A DNA stretch of 14,890 nucleotides from Escherichia coli (lineage in GTDB: Bacteria; Pseudomonadota; Gammaproteobacteria; Enterobacterales; Enterobacteriaceae), in the NCBI RefSeq assembly GCF_003334255.1, contig NZ_QOWU01000078.1; one strand, written 5' to 3'. The first letter of the stretch is position 1. The number at the start of each line of letters is the position of its first letter. Positions 106 to 14,890 of this stretch are shown piece after piece. A program made the translations under genes and the position numbers. The notes beneath the pieces were generated by a model, which worked only from the letters and a program-made list of their open reading frames with translations, searched no databases and had not been told where the DNA came from.

Positions 106-1650
106 TTACAGGTGTACTTCATCAATGTCTAACAATGACTTTTGAAGCACTTCAAAGACTGAACTATGGTCAAAGTCTTTGTTTTCTCGTGCAACTGAAA
201 TACCAGAGAAAGATTTACCATTCAATAAGCGTATAGTTATTTCTTGCTTGTAGTAGTCAAAAATCATCTCTTTGATAAATGACTTTATGGCAAGTTGTAG
301 TTTGATACGTCCCTCTACAGTTTTCCGGTCACTGTCTTGGATATCATTGTCTGACCTTAATGACTGGATAGCTTCAGCCTGTCTTAAATCCTTCTTCTTA
401 GATTCAAGTTCAACACGGTTGTTTGTTATTCTTTGGGCTAATGTGTCAAGGTCACCCAATCCTCTTTCTGCAAGGCTAATTAGGTTATTAATCCCTTTTT
501 CTAGTGATGTGATATCGGCTTTAAGCGTGGTAACAGAAATATTGTCACCATTACTCTTAAGGCTCAGATACTGAAGTGTGGGGAATACCTTTTGAATGAG
601 TATATCTTCAATCAATGAACGGTTAAATGCCTTAGAATTACAACGTCCAAGTTGACGATTACGACATTCAAGATAGCCTCTAGGGTAGCGTCCTTCTGGT
701 GTCTTCTTGGTATTACGCTGACGCAGTGTAGAACCACATTCTGCACACTTGCATATCCCTTTAAAGATATCAATAGAACTTGGTTGTCGTGAGGTTGGCT
801 TCTTGCCTTTGCCTTGACCTCTAATCATCTGTACGGCATGAAACTTTTCTTTTGAAATAGCAGGGGGGAAATAGTCACTGACTCCGTAAGCAACGCCAAT
901 TAGAGACTCCTTTAATAAAAGGTCACGTACTCTTGTAGGTGTCCAGCCTGTGTCTACCTTTTTATTCGTAATGGTGGGGATGTTTTCAAGATTTAAATCT
1001 CTGGCGATTGCATGTAGTGATTTTCCTGAAAGTTTTTCGTCAAAGATTCTATGAATTGTTTCTACGTGGTGAGGTATTAACGAAAATGATTTTCCGTCAG
1101 AATTGAGTTTTAACCATCCGGGGCAATTACCGGTTATCTTTGTTCCATCCTGTTCAAACTGTTGTCGTTTATGTGACCATACCTTTTTAATACGGTCAGA
1201 TTTAATAACAGACTCGTTATGGCTACGCTCTTGTAGGATAATCATTCTGATTAATGCGAGAGAATCATCAAGAGATTGGCGGTTATACGTTTCACCGTCG
1301 CTTAGAGTGACAACCGTAATACCTTGCTCAAGAATAGCCCTGATAGTTTCCTGTGCATGGCTGATTGACTGACGGCTTACACGGTCTAACGATTCCACCA
1401 GCAAGACAGAATCTGGCGGTATCAGACCTTGCTTAACAGCTTCAAGAAAAGCCCTGAGTGCTCCACCTTCTTTTAGATGGTCACCGTGAAAGGCTGAACG
1501 ACCTAAATCTTCAAAACTAAGAGATTCGTCTAGGATGTGGTCTGGATGGCTGGCTAACCAATCCTGTATGGCCTTACTCTGTCTTCGATGACTATCACCA
1601 AAAGCTTGTTTCGTTGACGAAAAGCGAATGTAACTGTAAACCTTCCTCAT
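106..1650 (-). CDS. Large serine recombinase (serine integrase; resolvase-type catalytic domain + recombinase domain + zinc ribbon + C-terminal coiled coil)
   Basis: 514-aa ORF. N-terminus YIRFSSTKQ fits the resolvase/invertase catalytic serine motif. A Cys cluster (CKCAECGS...YLECRNRQLGRCNS) fits the zinc-ribbon domain, and the C-terminus is heptad-rich and coiled-coil-like. An in-frame stop lies 6 codons upstream of the ATG, and there is no clear Shine-Dalgarno sequence. Confidence 0.85.
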   Translation of the reverse strand: MRKVYSYIRFSSTKQAFGDSHRRQSKAIQDWLASHPDHILDESLSFEDLGRSAFHGDHLKEGGALRAFLEAVKQGLIPPDSVLLVESLDRVSRQSISHAQETIRAILEQGITVVTLSDGETYNRQSLDDSLALIRMIILQERSHNESVIKSDRIKKVWSHKRQQFEQDGTKITGNCPGWLKLNSDGKSFSLIPHHVETIHRIFDEKLSGKSLHAIARDLNLENIPTITNKKVDTGWTPTRVRDLLLKESLIGVAYGVSDYFPPAISKEKFHAVQMIRGQGKGKKPTSRQPSSIDIFKGICKCAECGSTLRQRNTKKTPEGRYPRGYLECRNRQLGRCNSKAFNRSLIEDILIQKVFPTLQYLSLKSNGDNISVTTLKADITSLEKGINNLISLAERGLGDLDTLAQRITNNRVELESKKKDLRQAEAIQSLRSDNDIQDSDRKTVEGRIKLQLAIKSFIKEMIFDYYKQEITIRLLNGKSFSGISVARENKDFDHSSVFEVLQKSLLDIDEVHL

Positions 1651-1668
1651 CTGTATATTTATCCAGTA
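1649..1668. promoter_or_regulatory. Candidate LexA (SOS) box abutting the recombinase start codon
   Basis: The plus strand reads CTGTATATTTATCCAG (CTG-N10-CAG, AT-rich spacer), 13/16 identical to the dinB SOS box core. On the minus strand it reads TACTGGATAAATATACAG immediately followed by the ATG. Confidence 0.45.
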
Positions 1669-1704
1669 CTATAATGACTCTATGACCAGATTATAAGGGG
1701 TGTT

Positions 1705-1734
1705 TTAGGAAGTGAAAATCATGATTTTACGCAT
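1705..1734 (-). pseudogene. dinB: dinB (DNA polymerase IV) 5' end, truncated: 14 nt of dinB (ATGCGTAAAATCAT) fused to element DNA, giving a 9-codon ORF (MRKIMIFTS*)
   Basis: The minus strand reads GAGGTGAGCA-ATGCGTAAAATCAT, matching the recalled dinB ribosome-binding site and start (MRKI from MRKIIHVDMD...). The sequence diverges after codon 4 and hits TAA at codon 10. Confidence 0.7.
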
Positions 1735-1750
1735 TGCTCACCTCTCAACA

Positions 1751-1770
1751 CTGGTAAAGTATACAGTGAT
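1751..1770. promoter_or_regulatory. dinB: dinB promoter LexA box
   Basis: The minus strand reads CACTGTATACTTTACCAGTG, identical to the recalled dinB SOS operator, about 16 bp upstream of the dinB ATG at 1734. Confidence 0.8.
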
Positions 1771-1804
1771 TTCAGGGTTTGAGAAATGCGTAAAGATTCA
1801 GCAT

Positions 1805-2560
1805 TTAACGCGTTCGCTGCGAAAGCACCTGCTGCTTATCCAGCTTTTGCACCAGCGGCTGCACCACTTTATCCCCATGCTGACCAAAGTATTGATACAG
1901 CGTATCGGACGCACTTTTGGTCAGCACCATAATCTCAATGCGCCGGTTGCCCGCGCTTTGCGGATTTTTGGAATCCAGCAGCATCTGGTCCGCCATTGCG
2001 CTTACCTGCATCACTTTATCTTCCGGCATTCCGGCCTCTTCCAGCACCCGACGAGCCGAAAGCGCGCGGTCACCCGAAAGGTTCCAGTTGTTGTAGATAT
2101 TGTTTTTGTAGGCCATCGCATCGGTATGCCCGGTAATAATAATTTTATTATCGAGCGAGTCGAACACTGGCGCGAGCTCCACCAGCAGCGTTTTAAAGAA
2201 CGGCATAATCTTCGCGCTGCCGCGTTCAAACATATTGCGGTTCTGGTCGTCTTTAATCAGCACGCGTAATCCCTGGGGAACAATCTCCATCTCCAGATTC
2301 GCTTCCATATGCGCATCACGGGCAATGGTGTTGATACTGGTTGCCAGCTCACCAAGCTCGGTGGCGGATTTCTTCTTCAGCAGCGCCGTTTTCTCATTCA
2401 CATCACGCGCTTTTTTCTCCGTCTCTTCCGGCACCGCCACGGTGGCAGGTTTTGGCGGATGAGACGGGCTGATTTTATTTAACGGCGACAGCCCACCACC
2501 GTTAAAAATCGACTGCCCGTGCAGCGCGGCGATAATGCTTTCACGCTCGGATTTACTGAC
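1805..2560 (-). pseudogene. lafU: lafU remnant (MotB-like lateral flagellar motor protein, N-terminally truncated Flag-2 relic)
   Basis: The translation has a MotB/OmpA-like C-terminal domain (NWNLSGDRALSARRVLEE...RRIEIMVL) but lacks the N-terminal transmembrane helix. The six-frame ORF extends to 2695 only by reading antisense through lfhA. Position between lfhA and PdinB matches K-12. Confidence 0.75.
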
Positions 2561-4274
2561 GCTGTTGACAATCAACTTTATTGTCGTCACCAAAGGGGCC
2601 GAGCGTATTTCCGAGGTTTCTGCCCGCTTTACCTTAGACGCGATGCCCGGCAAACAGATGGCGATTGACGCCGATCTTAACGCCGGATTGATCAACCAGG
2701 CGCAGGCGCAAACCCGGCGTAAAGATGTTGCCAGCGAGGCCGATTTCTACGGCGCGATGGACGGGGCATCGAAGTTTGTGCGCGGGGACGCCATCGCCGG
2801 GATGATGATTCTGGCGATCAACCTGATCGGCGGCGTCTGTATCGGGATCTTCAAATACAACCTGAGCGCCGATGCTGCCTTCCAGCAGTATGTGCTGATG
2901 ACCATCGGCGACGGCCTGGTGGCGCAGATCCCTTCCCTGCTGCTCTCCACCGCGGCGGCGATTATCGTCACCCGCGTCAGCGACAACGGCGATATCGCCC
3001 ATGACGTGCGTAACCAGCTGCTGGCAAGCCCGTCGGTGCTCTACACCGCCACCGGGATTATGTTCGTGCTGGCGGTGGTACCGGGAATGCCGCACCTGCC
3101 GTTTTTGCTGTTCAGCGCCCTGCTTGGTTTTACCGGCTGGCGGATGAGCAAACAGCCGCTGGCGGCGGAGGCGGAAGAGAAAAGCCTCGAAACGCTGACC
3201 CGCACCATCACCGAAACCAGCGAGCAGCAGGTCAGTTGGGAAACCATTCCGCTGATCGAGCCTATCAGTTTAAGCCTCGGTTACAAACTGGTGGCGCTGG
3301 TGGACAAAGCACAGGGTAACCCGCTCACCCAGCGGATTCGCGGCGTGCGGCAGGTGATTTCTGACGGCAACGGCGTGCTGCTGCCGGAGATCCGCATTCG
3401 GGAAAACTTCCGCCTTAAGCCCAGTCAGTACGCCATTTTCATCAACGGCATAAAGGCTGATGAAGCGGATATTCCGGCGGATAAACTGATGGCCCTGCCC
3501 TCCAGCGAAACCTACGGCGAGATTGACGGCGTGCAGGGGAACGACCCGGCGTACGGGATGCCGGTCACCTGGATCCAGGCGGCGCAGAAAGCGAAGGCGC
3601 TGAATATGGGGTATCAGGTGATCGACAGCGCCAGCGTGATCGCTACCCATGTAAATAAGATTGTGCGCAGCTATATTCCTGATTTGTTTAACTATGATGA
3701 TATTACGCAGTTGCATAACCGTTTATCGTCGACGGCACCGCGTCTGGCGGAAGATTTGAGCGCGGCGCTCAATTACAGCCAGTTGCTGAAAGTGTACCGG
3801 GCGCTGCTGACCGAAGGCGTTTCCCTGCGCGATATCGTCACCATCGCCACCGTGCTGGTCGCCAGTAGCACGGTGACGAAAGATCATATTCTGCTGGCGG
3901 CCGATGTGCGCCTGGCATTGCGGCGCAGCATTACCCATCCGTTCGTTCGCAAGCAGGAGCTGACGGTGTATACGCTGAATAATGAGCTGGAAAATCTGCT
4001 GACCAACGTGGTGAATCAGGCGCAACAGGGCGGGAAAGTGATGCTCGACAGCGTGCCGGTCGATCCGAATATGCTCAACCAGTTCCAGAGTACGATGCCA
4101 CAGGTGAAAGAGCAGATGAAAGCGGCGGGGAAAGACCCGGTGCTGCTGGTGCCACCGCAGCTGCGCCCTTTGCTGGCGCGTTATGCAAGGTTGTTTGCGC
4201 CGGGGCTGCATGTGCTGTCGTATAACGAAGTGCCGGATGAGCTGGAGTTGAAGATTATGGGGGCGTTGATGTAA
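2535..4274 (+). pseudogene. lfhA: lfhA remnant (FlhA-family flagellar export apparatus protein, N-terminally truncated Flag-2 relic)
   Basis: 579-aa ORF with FlhA-family motifs (VVTKGAERISEVSARFTLDAMPGKQMAIDADLNAGLI) that begins inside the conserved transmembrane region, so about 100+ N-terminal residues are missing. Length matches the recalled K-12 lfhA fragment. Confidence 0.8.
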
Positions 4275-12442: not shown

Positions 12443-13213
12443 GTGCCTGGTTTGAAGATTACGCTTTTGCAGCAACCACTGGTGTGGATGGATGGTCCTG
12501 CCAACCTGCGTCATTTTGATCGTCAACTGGAAGGTATTACCGGGCGCGATGTGATCGTTCTACCGGAGATGTTTACCAGCGGCTTTGCCATGGAAGCGGC
12601 AGCTTCGTCGCTAGCACAAGATGACGTAGTGAACTGGATGACAGCTAAGGCGCAGCAGTGCAATGCGCTGATTGCAGGCAGTGTTGCATTACAAACGGAG
12701 TCTGGTTCGGTTAACCGCTTTTTGCTGGTTGAGCCGGGCGGCACGGTACATTTTTATGATAAGCGTCATCTGTTCCGCATGGCAGATGAGCATCTACATT
12801 ATAAAGCGGGCAATGCGCGAGTGATTGTGGAATGGCGCGGCTGGCGTATTTTGCCGCTGGTGTGCTACGACTTACGTTTTCCTGTGTGGTCGCGCAATCT
12901 CAACGATTATGACCTCGCCCTGTACGTCGCCAACTGGCCTGCTCCGCGCTCTCTGCACTGGCAGGCATTGCTGACGGCCCGCGCGATTGAGAATCAGGCG
13001 TATGTGGCGGGATGCAATCGCGTCGGCAGCGATGGCAACGGCTGCCATTATCGCGGTGACAGCCGGGTGATTAATCCGCAAGGAGAGATTATCGCTACTG
13101 CCGACGCGCATCAGGCAACGCGCATTGATGCGGAGCTGTCGATGGCAGCATTGCGGGAATATAGAGAAAAGTTTCCGGCATGGCAGGATGCGGATGAGTT
13201 TAGGTTGTGGTGA
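12443..13213 (+). CDS. yafV: Nitrilase-superfamily omega-amidase (2-oxoglutaramate amidase) YafV
   Basis: CN-hydrolase fold with the catalytic triad context (E in VLPEMF, K in YDKRHLF, C in LVCYDLRFP). The GTG start at 12443 is chosen 9 nt after the AAGGAG Shine-Dalgarno sequence; the ORF-track TTG at 12434 directly abuts it. Confidence 0.9.
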   Translation: MPGLKITLLQQPLVWMDGPANLRHFDRQLEGITGRDVIVLPEMFTSGFAMEAAASSLAQDDVVNWMTAKAQQCNALIAGSVALQTESGSVNRFLLVEPGGTVHFYDKRHLFRMADEHLHYKAGNARVIVEWRGWRILPLVCYDLRFPVWSRNLNDYDLALYVANWPAPRSLHWQALLTARAIENQAYVAGCNRVGSDGNGCHYRGDSRVINPQGEIIATADAHQATRIDAELSMAALREYREKFPAWQDADEFRLW

Positions 13214-13253
13214 GTGGGGGTTGTGTTTAAGGACGGGGAGAGTCGGGGTATTA

Positions 13254-14390
13254 CTACGAAAGCCCGCTCCCCGCAAGGACTGACGCCAGGTAGTTTCTGT
13301 CCATGGCTGCTTTTCGCATCTTACGTCTTAACCCTGCCTTGAATACCTTCTCATTCGTCAAAATATTAATAGCAATGTGCCGTATCCCTGAAAATAATTC
13401 TGCTGCGTTTCCTCTTCTTATTTTGTAGTCGTCTTCATTCATTACCACGTCCAGACGCCTGTGCAGCTTATTCTCCACGTGCCAGTGGTTTCGGATTGCT
13501 GTGGCGAACTTCTCTGCGGTTAAATCAGCAGAACTGATATAATATCTGACCGTCATTTCGAGCTCTTTCTTTTGTTCTGCTATTATGGACCGAAAGGAGA
13601 CTGCCACGCATAATTTCTTCAGCCCTTTCCATTCAAACGTGAAATCAATAAGTTCATCAGGGACATCGCAAACAATATGAAGACGGATTTCTTCTCTGCC
13701 GTGACTCTTTTCACTCATTGCGTAACTGTCATGCTCTGGATTATTTAATTCTTTCAGCGGAAATTTTTCCTCAAAGGCTTTATTTAGCCGCCCCTGGTTT
13801 CCTTTTACCGCGAATAAATAATCACCTCCCTGTTTTTGTATCTTCTCTGCAATATCTTTCTGGCAACCCATCGCATCAGTTGTGATGATTTTTCCTTTAA
13901 TATCCAGCATGTTAAGAAGTTCAGGGATAGCTGTAATCTCATTGGATTTCTCATCCGTCCTGATCTGTCCGATGACCAGACTGTGCATTGTTGAGAACGC
14001 ACTAATGACATGAATCGCTCCCTTGCGGCGACTCTTGTCATAAGAATGCCGGAGTGTTTTTCCATCAATTGCGATGACGTCTTTATCATCTGAAGTATGG
14101 CAATCTCGCATCCAGTTAATAAAGCACTCGTGAAATTTTGAAGGACTGATACAGGATACAACTCTGGCGATGGTATCGTGAACAGGAATACCATTTTCAA
14201 AATCACCATATTGTTTTAAAAAATCGAGATGTGTTTCCCCAAAATCCTCTATATCTTCCCAGCCTTCTGCACCAGAAATAACGGCACAAATAGTCAACAG
14301 TAGAATATCCGATAATTTATGTTCCACTTTCCAGGCTTGTCTGTAATCGGGGATAATAGAAATATGTTCCATCAATTTTTTAAGTTCCAT
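13254..14390 (-). CDS. ISAs1-family transposase (H-repeat-associated ORF-H protein), apparently intact
   Basis: 378-aa ORF closely resembling E. coli H-repeat proteins (YhhI/YdcC/YbfD family). The K-12 equivalent position is recalled to hold only a short remnant (yafF). The IS ends were not delimited. Confidence 0.85.
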
Positions 14391-14488
14391 TTTGTTCTCC
14401 TTAATTATGTAAGGAGTATTTGATCATGTATAAGCAATAAAAAACAGCTTCAGGTAATGAGGAATATCTCAATTTTTAAACATAAAAT

Positions 14489-14534
14489 GCGAATTATTTA
14501 GTACAAAAAATCAGCGTTACGTGATCTTTCCCTG
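14489..14534. repeat. Direct repeat copy 1 (~46 bp)
   Basis: GCGAATTATTTAGTACAAAAAATCAGCGTTACGTGATCTTTCCCTG. Near-identical copy at 14741-14787. Confidence 0.6.
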
Positions 14535-14740
14535 CCCCTGCGCTCACTACCATGGCTCTTTACCACAGCAGCCGGGGTTGTTTGGGACCGACTTCCGACA
14601 GCAGATCCCGGTGGGCCTGCCACCATCTCTTCACAAGCTTATGCTTATTACATGCAAAACGTCCCGTTTTGCATCTTTGTGCCTACGGCACACCGGTGAT
14701 CTTTCCCTGATGAGGGATATATTAACTATTGAACATTAGC

Positions 14741-14787
14741 GCGAATTATTTAGTGCAAAAAATCAGCATCACGTGATGCTTTTCCTG
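14741..14787. repeat. Direct repeat copy 2 (~47 bp) containing a 16-bp perfect palindrome
   Basis: GCGAATTATTTAGTGCAAAAAATCAGCATCACGTGATGCTTTTCCTG. AGCATCACGTGATGCT is a perfect palindrome with a CACGTG core. Confidence 0.6.
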
Positions 14788-14890
14788 CTATTAATAACCT
14801 CCTCTATTTAACTGGTGATGCTGCCAACTTACTGATTTAGTGTATGATGGTGTTTTTGAGGTGCTCCAGTGGCTTCTGTTTCTATCAGCT

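Follow-up and report, generated by a model that had tools for sequence, protein, structure and literature searches.

The segment from 13244 to 14534 of the window, by which is meant the whole 14,890-nucleotide stretch of Escherichia coli DNA analysed here, is very probably a resident ISEc1-like H-repeat (H-rpt), which inserted once before the examined lineages diverged, has stayed put, and is most likely not self-mobile. The locus illustrates that an intact transposase ORF does not amount to a mobile element, since one end of this copy appears to have decayed and the copy has remained in place across the lineages examined. The window is a complete draft-assembly contig, and the gene order examined along it is lafU, lfhA, a REP-associated tyrosine transposase gene (named rayT in K-12), an NlpC/P60-family gene, dpaA/yafK, yafJ, gmhA, fadE, ivy, and yafV, followed by the features listed here together with yafV itself:

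12443–13213, plus strand: yafV (2-oxoglutaramate amidase), the conserved chromosomal flank, from a 547-bit match to NCBIfam NF007757 and the RefSeq annotation of the identical region in relatives.
13244–14534, minus strand: H-repeat element, ISEc1-like, ISAs1 family, 1291 bp, from comparison with other H-repeat copies.
13244–13254, minus strand: apparently decayed outer 11 bp of the yafV-side terminal repeat (IRR), CGGGGTATTAC against canonical CAGGGCAAGAT, from comparison with yafV-linked and canonical copies.
13254–14390, minus strand: intact transposase ORF, 378 aa, from translation, NF033564 and Pfam matches, and alignment.
14397–14432, minus strand: transposase leader with a promoter-like TATACA-17-CATAAT and a 7-bp hairpin, from consensus scan and fold.
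14520–14534, minus strand: canonical tip CAGGGAAAGATCACG of the transposase-proximal terminal repeat (IRL), the same terminus as in the ydcC copy L003; homology to all copies ends at 14534.
14535–14693, minus strand: 5' 159 nt of a class D group II intron (E.c.I9-type), starting GTGTGCC at 14693, from an 81.8-bit match to Rfam RF01999 (gathering score 36).
14694–14709, minus strand: solo IRL tip of an H-rpt, CAGGGAAAGATCACCG, serving as 5' exon to the intron fragment, from a 14-bp exact repeat of the IRL tip.
14710–14787, minus strand: 78-bp left-end fragment of an older H-rpt, ~81% identical to 14457–14534.
14814–14890, plus strand: first 77 bp of IS1, running to the contig end, 100% identical to the second IS1 copy in a7 (L006 11938–12014).

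The borders of the element were set against three reference copies, namely the ydcC copy of Ecol_AZ153, the yhhI copy of LR-45, and the ydcC copy of O157. Window positions 13255–14534 are 96.9–97.5% identical, without gaps, to the ydcC and yhhI/RhsB copies, and whole elements, including the tip, are 96.6–97.7% identical to the window copy; the Ecol_AZ153 and LR-45 copies align gaplessly up to 14534 (or 14533), and the O157 copy covers this span as two separate alignments. At the transposase-3' end all three references carry 11 more bases, CAGGGCAAGAT, and their opposite end, read on the other strand, is CAGGGAAAGATCA, so that the element comes to 1291 bp with imperfect terminal inverted repeats. 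An earlier reading of the DNA, made from the letters only (the sequence-only reading), had given the span as 13214–14420, which does enclose the ORF; the element itself lies at 13244–14534 and runs 114 bp past the end of that span. The recognisable IS ends which the same reading had asked for are present on one side, where the IRL is canonical, but not on the other, where the outermost 11 bp of the IRR have degenerated, CGGGGTATTAC differing from CAGGGCAAGAT at five of 11 positions, the second base included; terminal repeats at both ends, as they occur in E. coli copies (CAGGGMAAGATYACG), are thus not found in the window. The target-site duplication of ISAs1-family elements that it had proposed to look for was absent at the window copy, whose flanks, GGAGAGT... 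and ...CCCCTGCG, are unrelated, and likewise at the ydcC and yhhI copies inspected. A de novo inverted-repeat search over 13100–14890 returned no terminal pair, because the IRR tip has decayed; one candidate repeat (I23, 13221–13230 / 14476–14485) was rejected, as the other H-repeat copies place the ends elsewhere. Judged in this way, the window copy would not count as a complete IS; an identity of 97% across 1280 bp leaves no doubt that it descends from the ISAs1 family.

The transposase gene is, in turn, entire. The minus-strand ORF 13254–14390 translates into 378 aa from an ATG start to a single terminal stop and takes up 1137 of the 1291 bp, without a frameshift or internal stop, and the full-length H-repeat/ISAs1-family ORF claimed by the sequence-only reading was borne out, since the protein is neither frameshifted nor truncated relative to reference H-repeat proteins. 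In the comparison with copies at Rhs loci, also called for there, it aligned gaplessly with the ISEc1 transposases at ydcC and yhhI/RhsB, with 97–98% amino-acid identity. It matches NCBIfam NF033564, “ISAs1 family transposase”, over model positions 1–314 of 314 with 407 bits (cutoff 70 bits), as well as Pfam PF13808 and PF01609, and these matches, together with its identity to RefSeq-labelled ISEc1 copies, mark it as an ISAs1-type DDE transposase; the RefSeq name is “ISAs1 family transposase” in every yafV-linked match listed. The residues D109, D172, and E306, assigned from their motifs as the putative catalytic DDE triad, are invariant in all four aligned H-repeat copies and the surrounding motifs are intact, which makes it plausible that the protein is active; a sequence search of the PDB for a relative by which the DDE residues could be placed found none. 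Two substitutions, I225M and P277L, are private to the window protein in the alignment with H-repeat copies. NCBI already lists an identical protein, WP_114322219.1, and this occurs only on the 14,890-bp draft contig. An AAGGAG Shine–Dalgarno sequence lies 6 nt upstream of the ATG, and at the other end the gap between the yafV stop at 13213 and the transposase stop codon measures 40 bp, the two genes being convergent, just as the sequence-only reading had stated.

The leader of the transposase gene contains, on the minus strand, the promoter-like site TATACA-17-CATAAT, found in a consensus scan, and a 7-bp hairpin (14397–14416) that in the predicted fold (−8 kcal/mol, z = −2.3) pairs the Shine–Dalgarno sequence, with the −10 hexamer sitting in the hairpin loop. 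Given this position of the −10 hexamer, native transcripts would start inside the hairpin and would be translatable, and transcripts reading in from outside would be silenced by folding. Silencing of read-through transcripts by folding is known for IS10 and IS50, and the promoter-like site and hairpin of the leader could have such a regulatory role here. The leader hairpin is invariant in seven H-repeat copies (one loop difference), with no evidence of covariation.

Upstream of the IRL the window preserves a nested arrangement of H-rpt ends. On the minus strand the old H-rpt fragment (14787–14710) is followed by the solo tip (14709–14694), the intron fragment (14693–14535), and then the complete H-rpt from 14534; three successive co-oriented H-rpt left ends thus stand at 14787, 14709, and 14534. 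The intron fragment shows the group II domain I sequence and structure with a GUGYG start (RF01999; GTGTGCC at 14693), and what is left is 159 nt abutting the H-rpt IRL, without a complete ribozyme or a reverse transcriptase ORF. The end of the Rfam alignment (the last 26 model positions, 14504–14534) was rejected as a spurious extension on the IS end; true intron sequence is found there in the O157 copy. In ATCC 8739 a full-length E.c.I9 intron splits an H-rpt IRL between its nt 15 and nt 16, and window 14535–14711 is 97.7% identical to the ATCC 8739 stretch with the solo tip and the 5' end of that intron. Leclercq and Cordaux (2012, PMC3522654) described E.c.I9-tr2, a class D, 159-bp fragment “in another Rhs region” of BL21/REL606 at ~0.2425 Mb, along with orthologous 193-bp intron fragments in O157 and other strains, and identified the Rhs IS as the target of E.c.I2 and E.c.I9. 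Its length, the published coordinates next to yafV, and the ATCC 8739 alignment match the window fragment to E.c.I9-tr2. This tip and intron recur in O157, at its ydcC-linked Rhs locus, with 35 more nt before the H-rpt tip, which places the junction at intron nt 193–194. A search of 5426 complete genomes found the intron fragment in 2616; both IRL/intron junction types together account for 2229 genomes, and the window type for at most 886. In L012 (NZ_CM139235.1 3784000–3792000), positions 1621–3511 contain another full-length group II intron, which carries ltrA and shares 86% identity with window 14541–14642; it interrupts an H-rpt transposase ORF at a point equivalent to window 13447/13448, and a second, intact H-rpt follows in tandem; this site is probably the other “Rhs IS” homing position of PMC3522654.

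The simplest history for these junctions, and one of several routes to them, is insertion followed by collapse. In it, the intron E.c.I9 would have invaded an old yafV-linked H-rpt at nt 15/16, a second H-rpt would then have landed in the intron at nt 159, and homologous recombination between the two co-oriented H-rpts would have collapsed the structure, joining a fresh IRL and ORF to the old IRR. The complete IRL tip that follows the intron fragment implies that a second H-rpt took part; the collapse step is inferred, and a check of the history by looking for an old-versus-young divergence gradient along the element gave no clear signal. A further reading is that the IRL/intron junctions, at nt 159 beside yafV and at nt 193–194 in the ydcC-linked Rhs locus, are footprints of the H-repeat transposase, left by repeated landing by or in resident H-repeats and subsequent collapse, which we consider unlikely. 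If it were true, landing and collapse would “refresh” decayed H-repeats and drive the turnover of Rhs toxin/immunity tips, and in a stronger version the protein would be retained for that host-level role.

The age of the insertion can be judged from its spread. A 141-nt probe for the yafV junction is covered over at least 80% of its length in 1726 of the 5426 complete genomes, and further genomes match at ~90% identity. The window shares its yafV/H-rpt junction with K-12, with the close relatives L002 and L006, and with the more distant L007–L010 and L013–L015; among the lineages examined, all those that have the island have this junction, and one junction shared by divergent lineages indicates an old insertion, which would predate much of E. 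coli diversification and would not have moved since before these lineages split. The fate of the copy differs among them: it is full-length and intact in the window and in relatives such as Iso00270 (L002) and a7 (L006), internally deleted by ~0.75 kb in the alignments of L007–L010, stopped at transposase codon 18 in L013/L014, and frameshifted in L016, and in L011, L015, and L016 a second, canonical-tipped H-rpt stands beside a remnant of the old tip. K-12 MG1655 is 100% identical to window 13100–13534 and then diverges, so the expectation that K-12 carries only a short remnant proved correct; it retains only window 13244–13534 of the element, annotated as the pseudogene yafF. No complete E. 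coli genome agrees with the window at 100%, the best match being 99.7%. The close relatives of the window have 5–7 H-rpt-matching places each.

These observations bear on the suggestion of the sequence-only reading that the intact copy may be transposition-competent, or, in its full form, that it is a functional autonomous insertion sequence still able to transpose. The uninterrupted 378-aa ORF with its full-length family match, the strong Shine–Dalgarno sequence and promoter-like site, and the canonical IRL would all suit such an element, and H-rpt ends have in the past been joined to new DNA, as is shown by the presence of IRL-tip/intron junctions at two intron positions. However, the IRR tip departs from canonical at five of 11 positions, position 2 among them, a target-site duplication is missing, divergent lineages have one and the same yafV junction, which implies no movement, and H-rpt transposition has not been observed (PMC3032704). 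An autonomous element is accordingly quite improbable, and transposition competence finds no support in the degenerate IRR, the missing duplication, and the shared junction. Since its IRR has decayed and a target duplication is absent, the copy most likely cannot transpose on its own; that the altered tip would block transposition is inferred by analogy with the general dependence of DDE transposases on terminal bases. The transposase could at most act in trans on H-rpt copies with two good ends, and one-ended or trans events of the window copy are possible because the ORF, the ribosome-binding site, and the IRL are all intact.

The H-repeat borders the aspV type VI secretion/Rhs island on the yafV side, and in island-bearing relatives an immunity gene, an RHS core, and VgrG stand immediately upstream of it in the same orientation. 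Beyond the H-rpt, L002, which is without the IS1, continues with a hypothetical gene, an RHS core, and VgrG, and the window contig ends in IS1 at 14890. Relatives without IS1 run on at 14814 into the immunity gene and RHS core; in a7 there is an IS1 at the window-equivalent site, within an alignment of 98.9% identity, followed by a deletion reaching aspV; and K-12 has lost everything past window position 13534, the type VI secretion island included. The sequence-only reading was right to regard this end of the window as variable, the relatives having an immunity gene, RHS core, and VgrG, an IS1-associated deletion to aspV, or nothing. The left end of IS1 (14814) was observed to be 8 bp from the site of the Rhs immunity gene stop in relatives. 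In E22 (L017) yafV is directly followed by tRNA-Asp, with no island; E22 was rejected as an “empty site”, its yafV 3' end and intergenic DNA being a different sequence which allows no before/after comparison. There, at 3064–3161, the last yafV codons and the spacer differ from those of other E. coli, and the terminator in the spacer contains ACGAAAGCCCG, identical to the 11 nt just inside the H-rpt IRR (~0.06 expected by chance). At the opposite end of the window, the region 76–1720 contains a 514-aa minus-strand ORF (106–1650) that resembles a large serine recombinase by a weak XisF-like match of 51 bits and is named “recombinase family protein” in RefSeq; next to lafU, at the point where dinB starts, the region takes the place of the sequence found in almost all E. 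coli. It is shared by only eight of the 5426 complete genomes and has the appearance of a rare integrative element located at or within the dinB 5' end.

The evolution of the H-rpt copies among themselves is that of a mosaic. Of 2628 informative site pairs, 547 fail the four-gamete test, and the window copy is less similar to its ortholog in the yafV-linked L013 (95.8%) than to paralogs at other loci (96.6–97.7%). Between the window and Iso00270 (L002), seven of the nine differences over 13100–14813 fall within 214 bp of the transposase gene (13560–13773), with identical flanks, which suggests a short conversion tract from another H-rpt copy. Taken together, the mosaic sites, the lower similarity of L013, and the clustered differences point to sequence exchange between paralogous H-rpt copies, whether by gene conversion or by recombination, and this would keep the inner part of the element young and leave the outermost tip beyond repair. 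Pairwise dN/dS among seven H-rpt copies is 0.04–0.15, which could also reflect selection on the transposase protein itself.

A rival proposal makes the H-repeat protein a domesticated transposase that the host retains for some task linked to Rhs loci, such as the capture or rearrangement of toxin/immunity tips. The low dN/dS extends to orthologous yafV-linked copies (the window and L002 transposases differ by seven synonymous and two non-synonymous changes), the H-rpt lies directly downstream of and co-oriented with the rhs/immunity module at every locus examined, and its positions are fixed and without target duplications. However, a low dN/dS is expected of any IS family with active masters and gene conversion, and the yafV-linked copy is truncated, internally deleted, or stop-bearing in many lineages, which argues against an indispensable role, so that domestication is very unlikely.

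The state of the IRR, on which the probable immobility of the resident H-repeat depends, can be followed in the yafV-linked copies. Their tips form a series, CAGGGTAAGAC in L015, CGGGGTAAGAC in L013/L014, CGGGCTAAGAC in L009, and CGGGGTATTAC in the window and K-12, and the 30-bp yafV flank is identical in the window, K-12, L002, L006, L007–L010, and L013–L015. Because copies with the same flank have intermediate tips, the 11 bp next to yafV are best read as a decayed repeat and not as a truncation. The latter, in which an adjacent deletion would have cut the element by 11 bp and fused it to the yafV flank, could draw on the megablast homology to other copies starting exactly at 13255 and on the window 11-mer matching the canonical tip at only six of 11 positions, but the L015 tip, in the same position and flank, matches it at nine of 11, which makes descent from a genuine IRR far likelier and a truncation barely credible.

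As a resident, ISEc1-like H-repeat, the element would probably have its main practical effect as a block of portable homology, through which adjacent Rhs/immunity modules could be swapped or deleted, as in K-12. The H-repeat, the yafF insertion, and the intron fragment are already known, and nothing in the locus is new in kind; it does account for the yafF remnant of K-12, with the borders of the element now fixed at 13244–14534, and its nested junctions document, on a small scale and in nature, what H-repeats and introns did in the past, which is of use for work on the turnover of Rhs/T6SS islands.

Compared with known systems, the window element most resembles the ISEc1/H-rpt copies at ydcC and RhsB (yhhI), with which it shares the 1291-bp layout, the single 378-aa ORF, and the position downstream of an rhs module in the same orientation, at 96.6–97.1% nucleotide and 97–98% amino-acid identity. 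Its IRL is that of the ydcC copy L003, whereas the yhhI copy differs inside the IRL. It departs from the ydcC and RhsB ISEc1 in the degenerate outer 11 bp of the IRR and in I225M and P277L, and the RefSeq label at its locus is “ISAs1 family transposase” rather than ISEc1. The yafF pseudogene of K-12 stems from the same insertion with the same yafV junction; the window keeps the full element, whereas K-12 is truncated past 13534. With E.c.I9-tr2 of BL21/REL606 the intron fragment agrees in length (159 nt) and, by coordinates, in locus, and no difference was detected. As to the wider family, its prototype is ISAs1 of Aeromonas salmonicida, and its members have a single DDE transposase ORF in an element of ~1.2–1.3 kb and are described as making target duplications of 8–10 bp. 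Set beside the prototype by this description, the window element differs in that neither it nor the two canonical E. coli copies examined have a target duplication; it matches the family HMM from end to end.
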